A DNA stretch of 64,000 bases from Trypanosoma brucei (taxonomy: Eukaryota): assembly GCA_000002445.1 (NCBI GenBank), contig CM000207.1, positions 1,472,001-1,536,000 of the forward strand, written 5' to 3'. The stretch's first letter is position 1, and the number at the start of each line of letters is the position of its first letter. The notes under the pieces are model-generated. The model did not search any database. It was not told the origin of the DNA and worked only from the letters and a program-made list of their open reading frames with translations. Below are positions 32,627-52,769 of the stretch, piece after piece. The translations under genes and the position numbers were made by a program.

Positions 32627-33691
32627 TCACGAAAACATCTTCTTCAAACCGGAAGCCAACTTGGCTGTACGAGCCTTTTCGGCCTCTTTTGCTTGCTGCA
32701 GCTTCGCAGCAACCTCTGTGTTTTGCGGGTCTAGTGCCTTCGCCTTCGAAAGGTCTGCGATTGCAGATTCAGGGTCACCTGACCCAAGGCAGGCAGTTCC
32801 ACGTCGAAAAAGAGCCTTGACGTTTGACCCATCGATATCAAGAACCCGCGTGGCGGCATTGCGCGCATCCGACCACCTGCTTAGCTTCACTGCTGATGCT
32901 GCCGCATTGTTGTGGCAAGCAATCAACATTTCATTAATAGTCCCCTCATTTGCCGAGGTTTTATTGACGGCTTTGAGATACCGAGTTACTTTCGCGTACT
33001 TCTCCATGGCGTTCTCGTAGTCGCCACCCTTGAACAGATTGTTTCCAATTTGCCGTATCTCTTCCCCTGCTCTCACGAGTTCCGCATCACTCAGTGCGGG
33101 AGAACAATCCTCCGGATAGTCCGGATATTTGTCCCCACCGACTTGCTCCACGGGATCGGGAAGTGATTCCATTACCCCACAATCAGCAATTACACAGGGT
33201 TGAAGAGGGGTGTCATTGGCACCTGTTTCAACGTACTCCAACGCGCGTACCGTGTTCATTCCGCGCACGACTTTTCCGAAAACTACATGCCGGCCAGTAA
33301 GATGGTGCGCAGGGTTTACAGTTATGAAAAATTGGGATCCATTGGTGTTTGGTCCCGCATTTGCCATGGCTAGTAAGCCGGCCTTATCACATGGCATATC
33401 AAAGTTCTCGTCGTCAAAACGCTCACCGTAAATGGATACCCCACCTGTGCCATTGTGCTTTGTAAAATCACCCCCCTGAATCATAAACCCGCCGATAATC
33501 CTGTGAAATGTACTACCCTTGTAAGTCATTGGTGTGTCCGTCCCTTCAACGACCTTCCCTTCGTTACCGGTACAAAGTGCCCGGAAGTTAGCACACGTCA
33601 AGGGAGTCACATCATCGAAAAGCTCCAACACAATCTTCTCTCGAAGCGGCTTCCCACCGATGGTTACTTGGAGCCAGCAGAACTTGCCCAT
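32627..33691 (-). CDS. CYP40: Cyclophilin-40 (peptidyl-prolyl isomerase domain + C-terminal TPR)
   Basis: 354 aa. Cyclophilin core FHRIIGGFMIQGGDFT…GPNTNGSQFFIT followed by three TPR motifs. Confidence 0.9.
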   Translation of the reverse strand: MGKFCWLQVTIGGKPLREKIVLELFDDVTPLTCANFRALCTGNEGKVVEGTDTPMTYKGSTFHRIIGGFMIQGGDFTKHNGTGGVSIYGERFDDENFDMPCDKAGLLAMANAGPNTNGSQFFITVNPAHHLTGRHVVFGKVVRGMNTVRALEYVETGANDTPLQPCVIADCGVMESLPDPVEQVGGDKYPDYPEDCSPALSDAELVRAGEEIRQIGNNLFKGGDYENAMEKYAKVTRYLKAVNKTSANEGTINEMLIACHNNAAASAVKLSRWSDARNAATRVLDIDGSNVKALFRRGTACLGSGDPESAIADLSKAKALDPQNTEVAAKLQQAKEAEKARTAKLASGLKKMFS

Positions 33692-34288: not shown

Positions 34289-34747
34289 CTAAAATACGTT
34301 AACTGTCATAATGGCATAGTATGTAAGGGAAGCCAAAAGAGCTGCGATAACCTCATATCCCACATCAGCCGCAAGCAGTGGCAAGGGGCGCTGGTGTTGA
34401 ATAGATAAGTGTTGGCTCACGCACGAGATCCCTGCAACAAGCAACGCCGCATTCTGGTAGTCATGTAGCGAATTTCCCTTGCATATGCCAACAATTGTGG
34501 CGATGAAGACGATGCGGAAGCACGCCGAAAGTAGAGTAACAATCCAGTGAACGTAGGGAGGGTATCTCTGCAGAATATGCTCCACTCGACGGACGCCCTT
34601 ATCGGCAGCAAGGTGATAGTCCACTATTGTTTTCACAATAAGTTTGTACCACAAGGCAGCAAAAGCGACCTGAACGACAGATGCAAACAGAACAATACAG
34701 GGATTAACCTCCTTGATGGACTGTATTAGGGTTGTTTGAAGCGACAT
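34289..34747 (-). CDS. Hypothetical small polytopic membrane protein (152 aa)
   Basis: Four predicted TM helices. Transcribed-strand ORF filling an otherwise 850-bp gap. No family recognised. Confidence 0.4.
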   Translation of the reverse strand: MSLQTTLIQSIKEVNPCIVLFASVVQVAFAALWYKLIVKTIVDYHLAADKGVRRVEHILQRYPPYVHWIVTLLSACFRIVFIATIVGICKGNSLHDYQNAALLVAGISCVSQHLSIQHQRPLPLLAADVGYEVIAALLASLTYYAIMTVNVF

Positions 34748-35140: not shown

Positions 35141-36208
35141 CTACACATTATTCTTCTTTGCATCCGCGTCATTCATAACGGGTATCAGAGAAATAAGACG
35201 TTTCGCGAAACTTCTTTCCAGGTCAAACCAAAGCGTGAATTTATACAGTTCCCCTTCCCGTACGCACTGAGACGCCGAGGGATCATAACAAAGCTTCCCA
35301 TCTGGCAACAGATCACGGCTAATGAAATCTCTCTTTGACACAAAGAGCACATCCTTAAGCCGATCCTTTGACGCTTCGATGAGGGCCTCGTCAACAGACT
35401 CTTTGGCAACAGGTTGCTTGAAACGTAGCAACATGTCAATTGCACAACCCTTTGTTACCGGAACCTGAAAGGCGCTTCCGGTAATTCGCGACGAAAGAGT
35501 GGGCATCAGTTTGCAAAATGTAGTCATCCCAGTGTGCGCATACGGTGTTATACTATCCAACGTCACCCGGGTCTGCCGCCAGTCCTGCGAATTTGCTGAT
35601 CTGGCTGCATTGGGCTCTACCGGTTGGATGGCATGGATGGCTGTGTACGAGCAATCCTCCACGCCAAAACTCTCATGCAAAATGCGGATAAATGGGGCAA
35701 GAGCCACAGCGAGCGGAGCCCCAGAGCATATGATGGGTTGTATCTTCGAAAGATCAGAATCGTTTACCCCAGCAACGATTGCCGGCGCATCACCGCTCTG
35801 TCCGGCAACGAGGACACCACGCGCTCCAGAAGTCAAATGCCCCCAACAGCGGTCGCGTGTGGAAGTAAACCCAGTACATTCCACCACGTAACTCACACCG
35901 GCGTCGCGCCACGCAATATCCACAAGATCGTGCTTCTGCGTAACACGTATCCTTTCCGTTCCGCGGTAGAAAATGTACTCACCAACCACAGTAAGAGACG
36001 CCTTGTCTTCAGCAGAAAGCGGGCTCTCGTTCTGCAGCACATACAACACATAATTGATACTCACAGAGAAATCGTTTACGGCCACAACTGTTACTTGAGG
36101 CTCCGTCATTGATGCAAACAGAACGGCTCGCCCAACAGCTCCAAAGCCATTGATACCTATGGGTATAGGCAAGGGAACTTCACTTATCTTGCTCGTTTCC
36201 GCCTCCAT
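35141..36208 (-). CDS. GAPDH-like protein (glyceraldehyde-3-phosphate dehydrogenase fold, catalytic Cys replaced)
   Basis: 355 aa. Rossmann N-term IGINGFGAVGR…VAVND. Active-site region QPIICSGAPLAVALAPFIRILHESFG aligns to [24 protein letters not shown] with Pro165 (codon 35714-35716) in place of the nucleophilic Cys. The TAIHA histidine is retained. Confidence 0.7.
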   Translation of the reverse strand: MEAETSKISEVPLPIPIGINGFGAVGRAVLFASMTEPQVTVVAVNDFSVSINYVLYVLQNESPLSAEDKASLTVVGEYIFYRGTERIRVTQKHDLVDIAWRDAGVSYVVECTGFTSTRDRCWGHLTSGARGVLVAGQSGDAPAIVAGVNDSDLSKIQPIICSGAPLAVALAPFIRILHESFGVEDCSYTAIHAIQPVEPNAARSANSQDWRQTRVTLDSITPYAHTGMTTFCKLMPTLSSRITGSAFQVPVTKGCAIDMLLRFKQPVAKESVDEALIEASKDRLKDVLFVSKRDFISRDLLPDGKLCYDPSASQCVREGELYKFTLWFDLERSFAKRLISLIPVMNDADAKKNNV

Positions 36209-37796
36209 CAGTATACCTTCGGGCGGTTCCGTACGGCTTCCCTGTTTGTGCTTCCGGCTTCAGTTGGGACAGATAGGAAAGAAAAATACAACTAACAATG
36301 TAGAGGTAGAACCCGCAATGAAAGGAATGGTGCCAAGAAAAAAAAACAAATCTACATATCGGCGGTCGCTGCATTCACATCACAGCACATGCATCTAATG
36401 TGGTGTCCGTTCCAGATGGAGGCCACTTAAAATGCACTCCGATTACCGAGTCCAATACACAGATTAGAATAATGCAAAATAAAACGTCCTGTTCCCGTTA
36501 GTTGGTTAAGCAAAAAAAATTTTTAACATCTGACCTTTCAGTTCGCGAATGGAAAGAGACGACCTATAAAAGTACAGTCTAGTTTACCTTGTGACGCACA
36601 GTGATCAGTGCAGAACGAGCACAAGTTTCACGTTATCCGCCGTGTCGCTTAACTGCTTAACCCCATTTATATAGAGAGTTCTTCATAATTCAACCTATTT
36701 GCATGGGAAACATGGGTTCGCGTAAGGGCCCCGACCATTATTGTCCATGCTTCTCCGATTGTACAAACACAACTGCATCCAAGTACAACCAGTTACAAGC
36801 AACTGGGACTTGTAGCCGTTTGGTCGCGGATTCTTTTCGCATATAAACATCGCGAAAGTTGCAGTAAATCGGACAAAACGACTACACGCACGTATATGTT
36901 GATTCCTATTATAATTACCACACTTGCCGATACGACTTAACTGGAGTCAGTTTGACATTCCTTGAATTCTATTTGGAGAATACGCTTTCCTGAACCGATA
37001 ATAAGACGCGGAAGTACACGCCCGTCAACGTCACAGACGGCACAAATTCTGTCTTGCTCTATATGCACCTCGGCTGCCGTCAAGAAAACTTATCGACAAC
37101 AACAGTAGAAGGACTTACACTTTCCTTGCACTGCCATGATCGGTTATGTGTCTGCAGCAAATGCTTAGCTGTTCCTAACATGGCGCACCCTTTCAACACC
37201 AACTCTTTGGTTTACCCGTTTTTAAAAAAGGAAAAAAATCATGTTTCAATGAGCGGTGTTATCTGTACAATTCTCTGACCCAGGTAGCGATACCTCCGTT
37301 TCCTGAACCACACGCGTTTCACAACTGCATTATCTCCTCCACATGGGGACTCTGAAATGCTCTTCGCGAGGCCGTGTCCCAAGAGAACTGGTGGCCCTCT
37401 CTCTCTCTTTCTCAAAGCTGTTTGCGATGCGTGGATCACTGCCCTATGGGTGTTCTCACACCAGTAAGCCTATGTACCCCGAAAGTCCCATGCCCTTCGT
37501 CGACGACGAATGCAGTGCGGGGGTTTGAATTTTAAAAGATAAAAGAGATCCCGCAGAGGAGATTAAGTCAATTCAAAACAAGAATGGAAATGAGGCTCAA
37601 CAAAATAAGCTACGCGATCCTCATCTATAGAAAAAAAAATCTGTATCCTACCAGGACGAGCCTTCCTGTGCACCAATAGGGACTGGGAATAAAGAAGTTA
37701 AACAGTTTCACTTTTTCGTTTTCGCTGCGCAAATGCTTGTATGTCTGTGACTTCAACGTGAATGCGTTTAGGGAAAAACAGATGTTTTACCACCCC

Positions 37797-38213
37797 CTAT
37801 TCTATAAATTTGTTGTATTCATCGGCAGTCATAAGCCCCTTTGGTATCTCGTCACACTTAACCTTGACAAGCCAGCCATCGGCCTCCGCGGAGCGATTAA
37901 TCAGCGACGGCTCATCCTTTACTTTCTCGTTAACCGCATGCACGACACCGGTGACAGGACAGTAAACATTGCTTGTAGCCTTCACACTCTCCACCTCTCC
38001 CAGCATATCTCGCTCTGTTATTTTATCACCAACATTTGGCAATGCGACGTAAACAACGTCACCAAGGTTCTCCTGCGCATGCGCCGTTATACCAATGGTC
38101 GCAATGCCGTCGCCATGCTCTACCCATTCGTGGCTATCCGTGAAGAAACGGGTGGTGTAAAAGCGAATAGTGGCCGCCACGGTGGCTGCTGGACAAAACA
38201 GTGCGCGACGCAT
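37797..38213 (-). CDS. GCVH: Glycine cleavage system H protein (mitochondrial)
   Basis: 138 aa. Lipoyl-lysine motif GEVESVKATS. N-terminal presequence-like MRRALFCPAATVAA. Confidence 0.85.
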   Translation of the reverse strand: MRRALFCPAATVAATIRFYTTRFFTDSHEWVEHGDGIATIGITAHAQENLGDVVYVALPNVGDKITERDMLGEVESVKATSNVYCPVTGVVHAVNEKVKDEPSLINRSAEADGWLVKVKCDEIPKGLMTADEYNKFIE

Positions 38214-42216: not shown

Positions 42217-43665
42217 TCATCTCCTCTGCGTAGCACACCGCGGGGCAATGGGGGCTTTCTTTGATGATGTCATGACTTTGCGCCCCTTTGTTCGAGCATC
42301 CACTATTTTTTGCCACACAGACGTATAGATCTGTTTGGCGCCTTTCTCGCTTATTTTCGCATGAGATTCCATTATGCGACGGATGAACTCTGCCTCAGGA
42401 ATATGAACAAGGGTACGACCATCTCCTTCAGGAAGAATATATTCTGGGTTGGTAATCCGACCTCTCGAGCACCGACATATAAATGCCAACGCTTGCTCCC
42501 TGTCAAACCCATTTGGATCGTCGGGGTCATCAGCAACAATACGTGCTGGAACGGTTACCGCAAGCAAGGAGGCGTACCTCAATGTGTTTATTGTATGTCT
42601 AGAATCTCTCAACAGAGGAGAAACACATGCTATTACTACCGTCTTCGTTGGTCTCTTCACAGCAATTTCAAAACAATCACGCAGTAATAGTGTTAAAGGC
42701 GATCTTCTAAATGGTATATGCAGGTGACTGGTGCTTGTCGCTGCCATTGCTCGCGCCCGGATGCATTCTTTCAGCGTCATAAGTGAGGTGTTGATGAACT
42801 TTGCTTCCATTTGTCTTTCCTTATCATGTGTAGCGCTGTCCGCTGTGTTCTCACTTCCGGCAAGATCCACAATAAATAACTCCCCTGGTTTAACCCACGT
42901 GCTGTTCTTACAAATTATTTGTATGCAGGTAACCATGTGGCTGCGGGAAGAGACTTCATTTCTCCCTGTTGCCTTTGTCATCCTCTGGGATGCCGCCTCT
43001 TGGAACACAGCTAATAACATTTCATCATTAGAACATTCAAAACCATCTGTTCCACGGATCTTCAACTCACCAGATATATCCTCAACTACCTGAACCTCTG
43101 AACCGGTCAGGAGATCAATATTTTTGTTTGCTTGTATCTCAATAACTGTAATGAAAATGTTATGTGAAGCAAAGTAAGGAGCCAGATCCCTTGACATAAG
43201 GCCAACAATACCCAACGTCGTATGCGTCTTACCACTCCCTGTTTGTCCATAGCACAAAACACAGGTCGAGGCACCCTCAACCGACAAGTGAACGAGAGGT
43301 GCACATGACTCCATGTATACGCGTTCGGTGTCATCCCCTCCGCAAAAAACTCCGTCGAGAGTTACGCTGTGTGGCTCGATTGTGCACTGTCCAGCTAGTG
43401 AAATTTTGGGGGACATTACAACAGGATCGCGATACCCGTCCACTTTACGAATGATACTTTTGCTATTCATGTCTTCTTGGTCGAAAGGTATAATTGGACG
43501 ACATCGGACAAATATTCTAGAGTCCTGAGAAGTGAAAAGTTCTTTAGGGTCCATAGACGGGCGGAGCTTCTTCTTGACAACCTCAGGCACCTCGGAGGTG
43601 TTGAGCAAGCGTTGAAACTCGGCACATTTGGTACCAAGTTCAGCCACTAACGGTATGTTGGGCAT
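42217..43665 (-). CDS. Kinesin-13 (MCAK-like microtubule depolymerase)
   Basis: 482 aa. P-loop GQTGSGKTHT, switch II VDLAGSEN, and the kinesin-13-specific KECIRA loop (KFINTSLMTLKECIRA). Confidence 0.8.
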   Translation of the reverse strand: MPNIPLVAELGTKCAEFQRLLNTSEVPEVVKKKLRPSMDPKELFTSQDSRIFVRCRPIIPFDQEDMNSKSIIRKVDGYRDPVVMSPKISLAGQCTIEPHSVTLDGVFCGGDDTERVYMESCAPLVHLSVEGASTCVLCYGQTGSGKTHTTLGIVGLMSRDLAPYFASHNIFITVIEIQANKNIDLLTGSEVQVVEDISGELKIRGTDGFECSNDEMLLAVFQEAASQRMTKATGRNEVSSRSHMVTCIQIICKNSTWVKPGELFIVDLAGSENTADSATHDKERQMEAKFINTSLMTLKECIRARAMAATSTSHLHIPFRRSPLTLLLRDCFEIAVKRPTKTVVIACVSPLLRDSRHTINTLRYASLLAVTVPARIVADDPDDPNGFDREQALAFICRCSRGRITNPEYILPEGDGRTLVHIPEAEFIRRIMESHAKISEKGAKQIYTSVWQKIVDARTKGRKVMTSSKKAPIAPRCATQRR

Positions 43666-43883
43666 TTTACTTGCTACACAACCTTTAGACCAAAAAAACC
43701 TGCGGTAAGAGTTGCGGGATCCCTACTTATCTGCTATAGAACCTAACGGTGGAACATGAAGAAAGCGAGCATTTATTCGCGCAGTCAAGCTATGCCACAA
43801 GTGGTTTCAGAAACAAAAAACCTCCGCCACAAGAATGATGATATCAAACCGTGCGGCCGCAAAGTCACTGCAACAACAACCTA

Positions 43884-43902
43884 GTTTTTTTTAAAAAAAA
43901 AA
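43884..43902 (-). promoter_or_regulatory. Candidate polypyrimidine tract / splice-acceptor region for the kinesin-13 mRNA (T11 on transcribed strand)
   Basis: Plus strand TTTTTTTTAAAAAAAAAAA gives A8T11 on the minus strand, ~220 nt upstream of the ATG at 43665. AG dinucleotides follow. Inferred from the general kinetoplastid trans-splicing rule only. Confidence 0.3.
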
Positions 43903-46900
43903 AGACAAACTAAGTCAATAAACGAATCACGCAGCTCTCTTTCTCTCTGTCGGCTCAGCCAAAGAGTTACGAAAAAATGCTTTAAGATATGCACAAAGTA
44001 AAATTGTTTAACTGCGACCTGAGAAAAACAAAGTTCCACACGAAGGCATAAGTTGAGAAATACGTGAGAAACAAAGTAAGCATAAGACCAACAAACCGTC
44101 GTCAGGGGAAATTAAAGATAAAAACGGAAGGTGGGAACAGTTCTTTGTATACATTACCAACCAACTTTAATTGACGAAAAGATTTACAAACACATGCCTT
44201 GTTTCCAAAGGGAAGGGTGACAAAAAACAGTGAGCTCACACTCCACCATCAAAAAAAAAAGATAAAACAAACTCCAACCCACAGCAACTTCCGATCCCTT
44301 CAAGTCTGGCCGCCTCTCCGAAGCCAATCTAAAATGTACAAGATTCGTTAAGCACCTCCTTCCCTGTGACGAGCTCAAGCACACACGAAGAGCATCGAAA
44401 CTAGGAAATCATGCAAAAATAATAAATTCACGATGAGTAGGTAAAAGCGGAGAAACCATCAATATTAACCGAACAAGCGGTGTCACAGGGGCTAAAGGCC
44501 GCACGGTTTGGCGACCGCAAGTCGCGCAGACCATCAGCAGCAATCACCACTCAAGAAGGTATACGCCGAGGGCCCGTCACAAGTAGCCACCATTTGGCAG
44601 CCGTGCGAACCTTTAATTGTTGCGAATGCGGCGGCCGGCCGCCCGCATGCACCCCGGGCCCCGAGCATCAGAGCAGTCGGATGGCCGCCCAGCATCGAAG
44701 AGAAGGCCGGTGGCAACACCACCCACTGTCCCTGGCGACGGGGGACGCCATTTTCGGATCCTCTCGCCCCCTGCGCGTCCTCTCGGGTATCGACGGCATC
44801 CTTTATTGCGATATGGGGACCGGGGAGGGACAATGAACGAAATACCCATTCAACACTTTCCTCAACGCGTGGAGAACGGTGACGGGACCAAATGCAAAAA
44901 AAAAAAAAGAAGAGCGCACACTAACCACATGATGCGGGCGCACGGCGTCGGCGGAACCGCCTGCACGGGGTGGGGGCATAGCGGCAGGGAATGGCGTAGG
45001 CGTCGCGAAAGATCTAAGGGCAATAAGATGTGTTGAAGTCAAACCTGCCGAACGCCTGTTCAATCGCGAAGACCAGACAACATTCGTGTCAACATATTTC
45101 CACAAATCAACTATCCTTAACCAATAACGGCTGAGGACGTTGAATTCGACGGAGGGCCGCTCATTGTGGTGTGGACATGAGTTCCCGCAGCCGACCGTGG
45201 AACCGAGCCACCGCTTCTGGAAAAGCAGTCGAATGCGCGGTTCGATGGCGCCCGAGAGGGGAAAAGAAGATCACCGGAGTGCAGCTCTTCCCTCGCATTA
45301 CTTAGACACTGTATGAAGTAGGAGGGGCTGTGGTGGAGGCGGAAGAAAGGTAGCAGCAGCGGATTCACCGGCAACACACACAGGGCAAACGTCAGCGGAG
45401 GCCGCGACGGGCCCATTCTGGTCACAACCTCCAGCGCATCATTCACACGTAGCAAGACTGACCCGAACAGCTTGGCAATAAAGCGGTGTGCAAGAATTGC
45501 AGAAAAGATACGGGTGGTTCCTAAGGCGGAGCGAGTGGGAGAAGCTAAACCATTTTATAATCCACACTAAGAATCAAGGCACAAAAAAAAGCATCTCCCG
45601 TGGGGGAAGAGCGTGTTGACGACATTTTCCCGGCCAAAGGGCCCAACCTTATCGACCCAACAGCAGAAAAACTTTCTAGCACCTCGAAGAAGCAACAACG
45701 GTGGGCAAGGTGAACTCAGCGGTGAAAGAAACGACCCCAAGGCAACACGAATACAAAACAGAAAAACTGGAAGAGGCCGAGGCAGGAATGTGAGACCTGG
45801 CTGCCGCGGCACTTGCACCACGGACGTTGAGCACATTAGTTGTAGGCGTCAAAGAGCAGAAGCCAACAAAACGGCGGTAAGCAGATGCTGTTGCGGAAAT
45901 GTACTAAAAGAGGCTCAGAAAGATACGGCGAGCTCCGAGGGTGGAATTATCAGGGGTAACAAACTATAAGTCTAAGTTGTTTGATTACGGAGGAGCGGAG
46001 GTTGACACAGAGTGACGTATACGCTGGAACTGCACCTAGAGAAGATTGCACACACGGAAAGAAATTGTGGAACCTTGTTTGGAAAGAGAGGAAATGCTTC
46101 GTGAGGTTTTATAATCACCGCGTGGAACACGGCGGAATACCCGGGCGGGGGTGAGAAGGGCGGTAAAACATCACTCTCGGGAGACAGAAAAAGCTTGCAA
46201 AAGAGGCGGCGGCAGCCCGAGAAGCGGCCCTTAGAAGTGTTTTCTCCAAGTCGATGAGGGGTTGATTGGCAGGACACTGAAAGGTCACTTTGATCGGTTG
46301 CTTACATCAAAGAAACCGCCGTTTATGCCAAAGCACCAAGCAGTAGACACCAAGTTTTTGACGTTTGGTGAAACAAGGTGGAGAAATGGGGAGACAGCAA
46401 CTGCTTTCATGGATCGTGCAAGAGCGACCGGCTCAATGGATCGTCGGGGGATCACTCACTGTGGTTTTAAATCGCTGCGATGCGCATCTCCGCTTAGCGA
46501 GACGGATAGGACAGTTGCCGCATAATCGAAAATCCAAAATGAAGATGAGCAACGCGTAGCCAGGAGATTTCCTCGACCTTAGGGGTGTGGCGGGAATTTG
46601 TCCTCGAACCACTTCTGGTCGCTGTGATAATGGAAGCATAATAAGAGGCACTGATCGGAGCACAGGGATTAAGCATACCTTCCTTGCAAACGGTCCAATC
46701 GTCATACGCGCCGGCAGAGGTCTAAAAAAATTTTGAGCAAACGCCACGGAGGGAGCCTCGGTTGTGTGCCAATGAACGGTCGAAAAGACCTTTCGTGGAA
46801 ATTTCGGCTGAAGAGGAATGCACATGCTTCGGGATCATTCACGGCAACGCCTAGAAGTCCCATACATATAATAGCTGAAAGAAGGGCCCCAAAATTTCTG

Positions 46901-46912
46901 GACTTAATACCT

Positions 46913-46930
46913 AGTAGGGTTAGGGGGGGG
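46913..46930. repeat. Interstitial telomere-like TAGGGTTAGGG followed by G10
   Basis: Read directly: tagggttagggggggggg. Confidence 0.9.
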
Positions 46931-49759
46931 GGCACGGAGGGGCCGCGGGGGATTCACGAAAGAAGCTACGAAAGCTAAGGGTCATCCCCTGAATGGCGGT
47001 TGGGTTGGGAATCGCTACGGTAAACTTAGGTTGTTCTTATGTCTTACAGGGGGGAATTGTGCCATGGCATAACTTTCCGGCTGTATTCGTCATCGACTTC
47101 ACAAAAGTGTTCGAGGAGGCGTGCTGGCAGAGGTTTTAGACACAGTAAGTGGAACGCCTAAGTTAGCAGATGGGGAAAACATAGTGAAAGAGGCCAGTCT
47201 CATGCCAATAGTGGGCGCTAAAAACTAAAGAAAGGGCACTGGGCTCCATTATGCCACTCCAGATGAAAGGAAATACCTTTTGAGTAGACCCAAGAAGCGG
47301 GCTTACACGGGATAACGGTGCCTGTTGGAGCATATTCAGGTGTGTGGGTGGGGGGCAGAGAAGTGTCGTGGTATGTTCCGTCGATGGGAGGAACTGCTTG
47401 AGAGGAAGCGTCTCATGTTGATGGAGAGGTCCCTCTTCAGTTGCATGACGCACGAGGGACTGAAAGTGAACGCCTTTGAAAATGGAAAACACACGGAAAC
47501 AGTGAAGACCGCGATAAGCTTTAGGGAAGGTGGCTGTTAGCATTGCCGGGACCCTCTTTCAGCGGTTGTTAGTATTAACAGTTAAAATGGTCTGGGTTTG
47601 GAAGTTGAGTCTTGTGTTAGGATTAACGGTCATGCGGCTATATATATACATATATATTTTTACACGCATTAAACATTCCTCAACACCACTCCCCCAAAGG
47701 TTCCACGTGCCCTTTAGACTCGGCCTCCCCCCCCCAAAAAAAGCATTCCCCAAAACAGCTTTTCACCTTTATTTGTTTGACACATGCACCACGACGATTT
47801 TCCTCTTCTCTCCTCATCTCCGACGCGCTTCGATCAGTTTGTCCATTACCCTACAAATCTCGTCTCAACAGTTATTTGGTGATTCGCATTAATATCCGGA
47901 ACCACGTTAATGCAAACTCACCCCCTAAGAAATGAATTAAAAAAAACTCGCTGCATATTACCTCCCCCCTAGCTCACGTGAACTCCTCAAAAAGATTTGA
48001 TGCCCATGCGGAACTTGTGGCGGTCAGTTCTTCCTTTAGTCTTCGTAGTGTTACCGGCTGTCGTACCGCCGTCCCGCTAAAAGCAAATATTTTAACCAGC
48101 AACACCTCCTTCTCTACCCATCGTCACATTTGCTCCACTTGCCTCACGCACGGTAGCGGTTTGGGCCGCCTTTTCGAGAGAGTGTCGACGCTGCTGAACA
48201 AATGGGTTTCACCACTTGTGCGATAATTCCCATAGCGAGCAGCATTTTGAGTGTTGCTTATTTTTCATTTCCCAACCCGCTAGCGTCCGCACAACTTTTG
48301 ATAGTGCTTTTCGAATCTTGCTCGAGAAACAGATCTGTCGTCACCCTGTTCGGAGCCCTCGTGCACGCGGGCTCCGATGCGAACGCTAAGAAATGTGCGG
48401 ATGCATCTCGACGCGTTGATAATTGCAACTTGTTTCCTTTTGGGTTTGCTGCCGCAAGCTGGGGAGCTGCTGCACTACCTAACGAATTCTGTGGATCCCT
48501 GTTTGGAAGTCATCTTAACAGCGGGTTTAAGCGCCAAACATCTCACTACATTGCATGCGCCGTTAAGCCCCCAATCTCGAGGAAAAACTGCGGCGACAAC
48601 TAAAACTGCCTTTTCACGAGGTGTGTGTATGAACAACGCTTTTTGGTGGAGGCGTTAGGTGTGGAGGCCCGGGAGTGCTCTATAGAAGCCACTTCCCATA
48701 CGCCTCCCCACACGTACAATGCCGGATCCTTCAGGTTATCACAAGAGCAAACCACTATGATGCTACCCGGCACGGTCATACACGCTGACGGCCACCACAA
48801 AAAGGTCGAAAAAAAAAACTTCTTTTTCTCTTGTTGTGACAGTTTCTTTATTGCTCTCCACTCCCACCCTCAGAAGGAACTCGCATTGCCGTTAGGTCAT
48901 CACTTCCAATCTGGTTCCTAACTTAGCAGCGCCACCCATATCATTCGTTGCTGAACCCCGGGAAAGTTGGAACAAGCACCTAAGCAAACAAAATGTAGAG
49001 GGCATACGGTAACTACCTTCACTACTTGCTTCAGAGGGGTTCTAAGAGAAATGGAAAGAGGGAAGTGGATTTGTCGTGTATTCATCTGCAAGGCGTTTGT
49101 GTTGAAAAGGCCATTTAACACTGGTTGTGGGAAAACAAAGACATGCCATCTAATGGTACGCAATCATGTATCAACCGTGGCGAAACAGAGCCATCAGAAT
49201 ACTCGATGGCCACACACAAGGATGCAGTTGTGTGAAAAAAAAACGGAGGGATCTAATGTGAGAGGAGCGAAATAACGGTAGAATGGCATTTGTTTATGCA
49301 TCCACGCAAAGGCATGTTCGGTTCTTCGGAATCTGCAGCCTTCATTTTTCTGCTGTGAGAAGCTGGAGGAATCATGTCTCATTCTTTATTCCTTTCCCCC
49401 CCTTATTTCCTTTTTCCTTTCGGTATAGCATGGCTTCAGACTGCCTAACTCTTTGCTTCATCATTTGCTTCTCCATGTTTCACATTTTGCGCAGGCTAAA
49501 CAACAGCCGCTTCCCATTTATCTAAGTTCAACGAAAATACATGTGCGCCAACAACGAACATTACATTACATTAGGGATGGAAACAGGCCCCTCCTTCCTT
49601 TCTCCTCCCCTCCACAATACATACATTGGACATTACGACTAGAATTGAAAGGATAATATATATATATATATATACTTTTCTGTGTATCTCTTTCTCTCCT
49701 TGTCTACTTTTATACACTCCTTGCTTTATCAGCTTAACAGCAACGGAACGACGAGACTA

Positions 49760-50698
49760 TCACATGAGGCATGACTCATACGTCGGGACCATGTATTTAA
49801 TGTTGATGTACGCGTCCTCCCCACCGTATTGTTCGAGCAAGTGAAGTGTTTCATTTACCAAATCACTAATGTTTTGCCTCTTGGTTTGGGAATAGTCAAT
49901 TCGGTCGCCTATGTTCTTGTTTCGGTTCTTGTAGAGATTGAACACCGGAAGGATCTGCCTGTAATACGGCACGAGTGCCTGACCAACAAAGTCGGCGCTC
50001 TCCACAAGTTTCTGAAGAACCTTGAGGACGTTAATGATAACAGTTGGGTGTCGTGTATTTAGCGCTGTTTTGATAGGCACAATGAGTTGAGGGATGGTGG
50101 GAAGAATTTTATCTCCTCCCCTCTCAAGTAAGTCATAGCAGCCCTGCAGGGCAACAAATATGAATGGTTCCTCAAGTTCTCTAAGTCCATCGAAAAAAAT
50201 AGGAAGGAAATGATGATAATCTAGCGAGGACACATTCAGCCGCCACGAAAGCGTGCGTGAGGCGCCTTGCTGGATTGTCAGCGGCAAGTCTCCCCTCACA
50301 TAATAATTTCTGAACTCAGTAGGCGGGATGACACGCTTTCTATACGCACCAGCCTTCTCCGGTCCCTTTGGGTCGCCGAAGCAACCAATTTTCAATGACT
50401 GACGGAAACCGTTGTTTTTAAATGTGCTGAATGTCATACCTCCCGTGCCTGTGTGTCCTACCAGGATTTGCTTAGGGCGCTGATCGCTCTCCGTATCTTG
50501 TTTGCCCCGTTTCTGCACATCGGCTGACGCCGGCTTCGTCGCCGGATCCCCTCGCACCACACAGCCCTTTTTTGTGACTGTTATGTCATTCTTGATGCCA
50601 TAACCCGGCGGGAAGGGGCCAAAGGGACTTTCTGCGAGTTGCGGGACGAGGTCCCTGTCGCGCAGTAGTTGCTTCCGCTCCTTTCGTGAGAACGCCAT
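49760..50698 (-). CDS. PACRG: Parkin co-regulated gene protein (PACRG), axonemal
   Basis: 312 aa. Long collinear match to PACRG core: NYYVRGDLPLTIQQ…LDYHHFLPIFFDGL…GGDKILPTIPQLIVPIKTALNTRHPTVIINVLKVLQKLV…ALVPYYRQILPVFNLYKN…IDYSQTKRQNISDLVNETL…GGEDAYINIKYMVPTYESCL. Confidence 0.85.
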   Translation of the reverse strand: MAFSRKERKQLLRDRDLVPQLAESPFGPFPPGYGIKNDITVTKKGCVVRGDPATKPASADVQKRGKQDTESDQRPKQILVGHTGTGGMTFSTFKNNGFRQSLKIGCFGDPKGPEKAGAYRKRVIPPTEFRNYYVRGDLPLTIQQGASRTLSWRLNVSSLDYHHFLPIFFDGLRELEEPFIFVALQGCYDLLERGGDKILPTIPQLIVPIKTALNTRHPTVIINVLKVLQKLVESADFVGQALVPYYRQILPVFNLYKNRNKNIGDRIDYSQTKRQNISDLVNETLHLLEQYGGEDAYINIKYMVPTYESCLM

Positions 50699-51200: not shown

Positions 51201-52769
51201 TTACACACAACCAAAGTCACTTTTGTTTTTCCCTCGTTTACCCGAACGAAGCGTCTGATGCTCCGTAGTCTCCTGCTGATTTTGAATAAACTGCGACATT
51301 TCACCGAGTTGCTTGTGCTGTTTTGTAAACAAGCGAAGTATTTTTTCATCGCGTCTGAGTTGAGTGGAGCCGCGGACCCAAGAAAGCCACAAGTGGAAGA
51401 TATTAGACCTCATGTTTTTCCGCGTGTCTTGCTGAAGCAGCTGTGCAAGCGCCTTCCAAACAGACCTGGAACCAGTCCTCTCCGGGAGCACAGCGCTGGC
51501 GGAAGAAAATTGTGGCACCGATCTCCTATCCTCATCCTTAATACTCTGTCGTAGCACGTTAGAGTAACTGCGGATGTCTTGACTCATTTGCTTTACTTGG
51601 TCCCCAACCTTGTTTACAGTGTTGGTGAGAACTCGCTGCTCGCCATCGAGTTCCGCCAGTTTGGACGCATGGCAGTCGAGTTCAGCATCATGCCGGTGCC
51701 AGTCTGTTCGCAGGACATTTATCGTCTCTTCAATCACAGCAATTTCCCTACGAATGATTCCCAGCTCTTCCTCACCAGAAGTTTGCGCCGCTGCGGGATC
51801 ATCCCACTTGCATTGTGTCCCTTCGCGGTGTTGGGAGAGAGTGACTGCGTCTGCGGCGTACCGCTCCGTAGGCGTATCGCCAACGCTCGCCATCTCTCGT
51901 AGATTCCGGCCATTATGGAGTACGGTGGCCTTTAGGTTCTGCAGTTCCTCGGAAAGCACTGACTCACGTTCTGATAGATACCTTATCTTCTCGACTGCAC
52001 ACTCCATGAGCGCGAACCACTGCCCTCGTTCCATTTCATGTGTCTCTCTTTCCAAGCTCAAACCCTCGGAGAGTTGGGTTAACGCTTTCAGGACCTCCCG
52101 TGCTAAATTAGTTGCGCCCTCACCTCCTGCTGAACGCCCTCGGCACCCTCCCGTCAAAGTTTCTAAGGTGTCCTCGACATTCAAAATCCGATCCTGTAAT
52201 TGCCTTGCATACCGCTTTACTTCACGGCGACTTGTTGACTCTCTTAGAACAGACTCCGCCAGTAGTGCTTCCAGTCTGGCGGCCTGTTCCTCTTGTCGGC
52301 GCCAGAGCAACCCAATGTAGGAAGAATCACTATCCAGCACTGGCTGTGACGGTAACCCGGCACCGGCGTTACGAATTTCTTCCCTCACCTTCCCAATGAT
52401 GTAGCGCTCAAACTCCATGAGGTGATTCTGGAGGGAAGTGACGTCCATTGCGGCGTCCGTGGTTAAGCTATCTCCCTGCCGCGTCAGTTCTTCTGAGCGA
52501 ACAAACTCCGCGACGTCTTTCTGTATCCTTTCGCAGAAACTGCTGGACTGCCGTGCCTCGATACGAACTTCATCCAACGATTCCCGGAGCGACCTAAGTT
52601 CTTTGTACATATCCAAATTTACGAGATCCCAAACATTATCCAGCTGGGTGGAACCGGAGACTTCCTCCATTACTGTTCCTCCTCCTTTCTCCTTTTCTGG
52701 ACATTGAATGCAGAAGCTCGAGTTATATAAGTGTTTGTGTATTTTGTGCTCATTTCGGATGTAAGACAC
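51201..52769 (-). CDS. Coiled-coil protein (522 aa), hypothetical
   Basis: Heptad-rich E/L/R/Q sequence with no catalytic motifs. Transcribed-strand ORF. Confidence 0.55.
   Translation of the reverse strand: MSYIRNEHKIHKHLYNSSFCIQCPEKEKGGGTVMEEVSGSTQLDNVWDLVNLDMYKELRSLRESLDEVRIEARQSSSFCERIQKDVAEFVRSEELTRQGDSLTTDAAMDVTSLQNHLMEFERYIIGKVREEIRNAGAGLPSQPVLDSDSSYIGLLWRRQEEQAARLEALLAESVLRESTSRREVKRYARQLQDRILNVEDTLETLTGGCRGRSAGGEGATNLAREVLKALTQLSEGLSLERETHEMERGQWFALMECAVEKIRYLSERESVLSEELQNLKATVLHNGRNLREMASVGDTPTERYAADAVTLSQHREGTQCKWDDPAAAQTSGEEELGIIRREIAVIEETINVLRTDWHRHDAELDCHASKLAELDGEQRVLTNTVNKVGDQVKQMSQDIRSYSNVLRQSIKDEDRRSVPQFSSASAVLPERTGSRSVWKALAQLLQQDTRKNMRSNIFHLWLSWVRGSTQLRRDEKILRLFTKQHKQLGEMSQFIQNQQETTEHQTLRSGKRGKNKSDFGCV

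Follow-up and report, generated by a model that had tools for sequence, protein, structure and literature searches.

Does a Trypanosoma brucei gene that resembles glyceraldehyde-3-phosphate dehydrogenase (GAPDH), with a proline where the catalytic cysteine is expected, still encode an enzyme, and if not, what has become of its product? The gene is found in a 64,000-nucleotide stretch of DNA, here called the window, as a complete coding sequence on the minus strand (positions 35141–36208). The ORF list and translation give 355 amino acids and a TAG stop codon, with the ATG start codon at 36206–36208 and the stop at 35141–35143. All other features of the gene given below are on the same strand. 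A preliminary description of this locus had interpreted the product as a GAPDH-derived pseudoenzyme, and the peptides it quoted are present in the translation. In the reverse complement, two stretches rich in pyrimidines precede the gene and lead to an AG (36259–36258) roughly 50 nt before the ATG. As trans-splicing of trypanosome mRNAs takes place at an AG that follows a polypyrimidine tract, the region 36258–36349 was marked, on sequence alone, as containing candidate 5′ processing signals.

The predicted protein was 100% identical to a cluster labelled 'glyceraldehyde-3-phosphate dehydrogenase, putative', which is made up of T. b. brucei 927, T. b. gambiense DAL972, T. equiperdum and further Trypanozoon records. 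Four Trypanozoon accessions carry the identical protein (EAN76952.1, CBH14489.1, RHW70311.1 and SCU72465.1), the first of which is the T. brucei 927 protein. A GAPDH-like protein of T. brucei, TbGAPDHL (Tb927.9.9820), was described by Brown, Collingridge, Gull, Rigden & Ginger in 2014 (PLoS One 9:e103026; PMC4106842), who reported replacement of Cys152 by Pro, of the flanking Ser by Ala and of the flanking Thr by Leu, with GINGFG conserved at residues 18–23, and predicted the absence of catalytic activity. The window ORF carries the features published for Tb927.9.9820 (A164-P165-L166, and GINGFG at 18–23), and its residue numbering and substitutions agree exactly with the published text (PMC4106842). 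The assignment of EAN76952.1 to Tb927.9.9820 was based on these matching sequence features and not on a database cross-reference. The ORF is very probably TbGAPDHL, a protein with a GAPDH fold that has lost catalysis and is now a non-enzymatic component of the paraflagellar rod, and the Cys-to-Pro GAPDH-like pseudoenzyme has already been fully described (PMC4106842).

Judged by sequence comparison, the homology of the ORF to GAPDH is far above chance. A phmmer search of PDB chains matched 140 GAPDH sequences, the best with an E value of 7e-49 over residues 15–343. Pfam profiles placed an NAD-binding (Rossmann) domain at residues 16–117 (PF00044, Gp_dh_N; E 2e-19; profile positions 2–100 of 101; nucleotides 35858–36163) and the GAPDH catalytic-domain fold at residues 170–308 (PF02800, Gp_dh_C; E 1.9e-21; nucleotides 35285–35701), bearing out the earlier claim that the ORF aligns to GAPDH over both domains. 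The NCBIfam equivalog model for type I GAPDH (TIGR01534) aligned end to end (positions 2–329 of 330) with a score of 176.8 bits, which does not reach the equivalog cut-off of 367.2 bits. An AlphaFold2 model built from a 45-sequence alignment had a mean pLDDT of 90.3 and a pTM of 0.88, with pLDDT above 90 in the NAD-binding domain and only 61–73 in the S-loop region (residues ~191–220). When this model was compared with the PDB using Foldseek, the top 50 matches were all GAPDH (TM 0.82–0.91), with values of 0.83–0.90 for the GAPDH crystal structures cited in support of the fold, and the two-domain architecture of type I GAPDH, Rossmann followed by catalytic, was present both in the Pfam assignment and in the model. 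Canonical type I GAPDH (EC 1.2.1.12) has in common with TbGAPDHL the full-length two-domain fold, GxGxxG with Asp35, the catalytic His and WRxxR. However, TbGAPDHL is only ~28% identical to the canonical enzymes (human, and T. brucei glycosomal and cytosolic) and, unlike them, is without the nucleophilic Cys, the flanking Ser and Thr, Arg234, Thr182, Asn316 and Ser122. The fold is kept and the chemistry is predicted to be gone.

The column of the nucleophile (human Cys152, Bacillus Cys149) was checked in three ways, using phmmer pairwise alignments, MAFFT multiple alignments and a profile HMM of 86 canonical GAPDHs. In the pairwise alignments to Naegleria and human GAPDH, the TbGAPDHL segment 'iicsgaplavalap' was in register with the catalytic motif. 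The MAFFT alignments with canonical GAPDHs gave the same register, and the profile aligned the segment against PIICSGAPLAVALAP with maximal posterior probability; all three kinds of alignment were free of gaps here. The nucleophilic Cys of the SCTTN motif is missing and Pro165 (codon CCG, 35714–35716) stands in its column, as the preliminary description had proposed. Cys161 (codon TGC, 35726–35728) was found in a Ser column four residues upstream in both the phmmer and the profile alignment, in agreement with the view that it is not the equivalent of the nucleophile. Comparison with Gp_dh_N and Gp_dh_C had been put forward as a means of confirming the Cys column; it confirmed the two domains, but the column lies outside both models, as Gp_dh_N stops at residue 117 and Gp_dh_C begins at 170, leaving residues 118–169 uncovered.

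The functional residues of human GAPDH, whose roles are established GAPDH enzymology, were mapped onto the alignment with TbGAPDHL. Both flanks of the nucleophile were replaced (S151 by A164 and T153 by L166), as were further substrate and cofactor residues (T182 by Q195, R234 by Q248, N316 by L330 and S122 by A135). Gln248 (35465–35467) occupies the column of Arg234 (Bacillus Arg231), part of the substrate-phosphate site, in the context AFQVP vs AFRVP, and Leu330 (35219–35221) that of Asn316 (Asn313), which positions the nicotinamide, in WFDLE vs WYDNE. Human T211/G212, in the S-loop region, align with H225/T226; given the low pLDDT of the S-loop, the placement of Cys152, Arg234 and Asn316 is more secure than that of T182 and T211/G212. 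The residues of the phosphate anion sites are largely lost, with only R211 and R214 kept, in the Arg197 and Arg200 columns. The catalytic His in TAIHA, which had been reported as retained, is indeed kept, His192 (35633–35635) being aligned with the catalytic base His179 in the pairwise alignment, the site table and the profile. The dinucleotide-binding motif GxGxxG (G21-F-G23-A-V-G26; 36131–36148; codons checked) is also kept, together with Asp46 (36071–36073) in the column of human Asp35, an NAD ribose ligand in canonical GAPDH, so that as aligned the NAD-site columns would retain the motif and the Asp and differ at A135 and L330. Because the thiol nucleophile is Pro165, and residues of the phosphate and nicotinamide sites are also replaced, oxidative phosphorylation of glyceraldehyde-3-phosphate would not be expected, and the catalytic inactivity of TbGAPDHL is a very strong prediction from sequence and model.

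In an alignment of 16 GAPDHL-family sequences, two further cysteines, Cys111 (35876–35878) and Cys255 (35444–35446), were present in every member even as the catalytic residues drift. Seven residues past the lost Arg234, Cys255 takes the place of the Ser that is conserved in the NVSVVDL strand of canonical GAPDHs.

Orthologues with 54–59% identity were found in T. grayi, T. vivax, T. conorhini, T. cruzi, T. rangeli, T. melophagium and T. theileri, and a profile search recovered a 'GAPDH-like protein' from Novymonas, L. mexicana and L. major with 33–37% identity. The corresponding value against the canonical enzymes is ~28%, which sets the GAPDHL orthologues apart from the glycosomal and cytosolic GAPDHs. 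The comparison across kinetoplastids that the preliminary description had called for found Pro in the Cys column in all nine Trypanosoma and all four Leishmaniinae orthologues. In the window, the local order on the minus strand is a glycine-cleavage H (GCV-H)-like ORF of 138 aa (37797–38213), GAPDHL, a DUF1761-like membrane protein of 152 aa (34289–34747; scoring under the Pfam cut-off) and a Cyp40-type cyclophilin-TPR protein (32627–33691). The same order was found on a Logan contig carrying an orthologue locus (L004), and T. melophagium and T. theileri share its downstream part. Synteny of the block covers the orthologous loci L004, L005 and L006.

ORFs of at least 200 aa in the window are on the minus strand in 25 of 26 cases, and the sole exception (51610–52320) sits inside a longer minus-strand ORF, a pattern that fits a single trypanosomatid polycistronic transcription unit. 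No Rfam match at the gathering threshold and no tandem repeat was found in window positions 1–64000. The neighbours of GAPDHL encode AMP deaminase, SCAMP, the cyclophilin-TPR, DUF1761 and GCV-H proteins, an Hsp70-like protein, kinesin and PACRG. As trypanosomatid gene order does not imply shared function, no functional inference was made from these neighbours, and a functional linkage with GAPDHL was considered and dropped, these being unrelated genes of one polycistronic unit. A gap of ~6 kb (43700–49700) was observed between the kinesin gene (42217–43665) and the PACRG gene (49760–50698). It contained no ORF of at least 200 aa and nothing that matched Rfam or repeated in tandem; the only ORFs, on both strands, are short and not very plausible. 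Its length is unusual for intergenic or UTR sequence.

The published data on TbGAPDHL speak to the localisation and expression that had been suggested as a check. The protein is expressed in procyclic and bloodstream forms according to proteomics, and when tagged with GFP or YFP it is detergent-resistant and found in the paraflagellar rod of extracted cytoskeletons (PMC4106842). This localisation, together with the lost residues, supports the earlier reading of a kinetoplastid pseudoenzyme whose role is structural or moonlighting and not glycolytic. The localisation persists after RNAi against PFR2 and is lost after RNAi against PFR calmodulin (PMC4106842), which positions the protein either within the rod's proximal zone or at its connecting links. 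TbGAPDHL-null procyclic cells grow and move normally in culture (PMC4106842). This lack of a null phenotype in culture weighs against the preferred reading, and any structural requirement for the protein would be hypothetical. In a 2024 paper the flagellar glycolytic orthologues were called 'likely inactive' (PMC11148470); our literature searches found no later functional or structural studies of GAPDHL, only citations repeating the 2014 conclusion.

To examine the wider clade, 1.84 billion representative proteins were searched exhaustively with a profile, and the residue in the Cys column was then read out. Non-Cys residues in this column were P, R, T, F, S, L and E. In Phytomonas P0135 it was Leu, with the glycine motif broken (G12N), in P0130 Phe (G12T), in P0138 Glu, in P0132 Ser (G12S together with D35E) and in P0142 Ser. 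P0022 and P0025 have Arg, with Ser at the His column, and the metagenomic P0026 and P0131 have Thr, with the His, T182 and N316 kept. The Cys was kept, in a Ser-Cys-Thr motif, in P0134, P0136, P0143 and P0149 and in the prokinetoplastid Papus (P0140); apart from Papus, these relatives are sequences from metagenome or sequencing-run assemblies. R234Q and N316L were common to all trypanosomatid members, and these sequences formed one clade, nested among Cys-retaining sequences, in a neighbour-joining tree that is rough and carries no support values. The Bodo saltans orthologue is known to keep the SCT motif (PMC4106842). The clade picture agrees with the published scenario of loss and extends it, and the sequences hint at additional independent losses. 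The additions to prior work are the survey of wider relatives, the R234Q, N316L, T182Q and S122A losses, the dN/dS values and the synteny.

Several other explanations of the missing cysteine have to be set against the non-enzymatic reading. A degenerating gene copy would be expected to lose catalytic residues, but we give next to no credence to a decaying pseudogene, or to an artefact of sequencing or assembly affecting the Cys codon. The ORF is intact (343–356 aa) in nine Trypanosoma species and also in the Leishmaniinae. Nei-Gojobori dN/dS for GAPDHL between T. melophagium and T. theileri was 0.148 (dS 0.41), and three of its neighbours gave 0.09, 0.14 and 0.30 in the same pair; GAPDHL is under ordinary purifying selection and is a functional gene. 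The combination of intact orthologues, synteny and a dN/dS of ~0.15 indicates that it is neither a pseudogene nor the result of a sequencing error. A pseudogene was ruled out by the orthologue conservation and the dN/dS, and a sequencing error by the identical protein in the four independent Trypanozoon records and by the codon, as CCG differs from both TGT and TGC at all three bases and a single-base error cannot explain Pro165. No sequence correction restores a Cys codon. The published expression in both cultured life stages and the defined localisation of the tagged protein also count against this explanation (PMC4106842). It is, in addition, very improbable that TbGAPDHL is an active dehydrogenase in which Cys161, Cys111 or Cys255 has taken over as the nucleophile. 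His192 is available, Cys161 is conserved in eight of nine Trypanosoma, and Cys111 and Cys255 do not vary in the 16-member alignment. However, Cys161 was rejected as a shifted nucleophile on its position in a Ser column and its poor conservation, being Ser in T. melophagium and Ala in the Leishmaniinae. The Arg234 column is Gln in every trypanosomatid orthologue examined, Asn316 and Thr153 are lost, and the His is replaced in some orthologues that keep Cys255 (by Tyr in L. major and L. mexicana, by Ser in others). The TIGR01534 score is far under its cut-off, and mean conservation among GAPDHL orthologues is 52%, compared with 85–87% for the active isoforms (PMC4106842, Table 1).

A ligand-sensing role, in which binding of NAD(H) or a related nucleotide to the Rossmann pocket couples redox or energy state to rod function, overlaps with the preferred reading and the two are not mutually exclusive. 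We consider such a role unlikely. G21, G23, G26 and Asp46 were invariant in our alignments between the GAPDHL orthologues and canonical GAPDHs, and in the published model the size and shape of the cofactor pocket are preserved and its lining residues conserved, so that the pocket may be retained (PMC4106842). On the nicotinamide side, however, the contacts are gone (S122A, N316L and Cys152Pro), and the broken glycine motif or Asp in P0135, P0130 and P0132 means that dinucleotide binding cannot be a family-wide requirement. The invariance of Cys111 and Cys255, with the Rossmann motif kept in most members, could mean that the protein senses redox state or dinucleotides and is not an inert brick. 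A kinetoplastid-wide GAPDHL clade that has lost its active site several times and has a redox- or dinucleotide-sensing role in the paraflagellar rod is possible, and we hold it with quite low confidence. The preferred reading, that of a non-enzymatic rod protein, would make TbGAPDHL a building block or docking site in the extra-axonemal lattice of the rod. It may be the remnant of a flagellar GAPDH, ancestral and active, of free-living kinetoplastids, and the adenosine side of its dinucleotide pocket may still bind a ligand.

In the flagellum of mammalian sperm, the sperm-specific GAPDHS is attached to the fibrous sheath; it keeps a full active site and supplies glycolytic ATP. Both it and TbGAPDHL are GAPDH folds built into extra-axonemal flagellar structures. 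The phmmer and Foldseek matches of TbGAPDHL included the GAPDHS structures 3h9e, 5c7i and 5c7o. Unlike GAPDHS, TbGAPDHL is predicted to be inactive and is without the proline-rich N-terminal anchor. TbPGKL (Tb927.11.2380; PMC4106842) is, like TbGAPDHL, a degenerate copy of a glycolytic enzyme, the next in the pathway, that is flagellar and dispensable in cultured procyclics. It differs in having another fold and a multi-domain organisation (PGK-like, cNMP-like and HTH-like regions plus transmembrane helices) and in being axonemal, whereas TbGAPDHL is found in the paraflagellar rod; TbPGKL is not encoded in the window. TbGAPDHL illustrates well how an enzyme fold can be put to new use in the cytoskeleton, and adds little as a discovery.

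Among the wider relatives, P0026 was found on three metagenome contigs (L001–L003) that are compact, same-strand and kinetoplastid-like in appearance. On these contigs its Cys column is occupied by Thr and its R234 column by His, with His179, T182 and N316 kept, and a DUF1761-like gene is located downstream of it, as in the window. P0026 may represent an independent inactivation in a possibly free-living kinetoplastid. Another relative, P0129, is a predicted protein of 2089 aa with four separate GAPDH-like stretches, an SCT motif being present in the stretch inspected; either its domains are in tandem or, perhaps, the gene model has fused separate genes.
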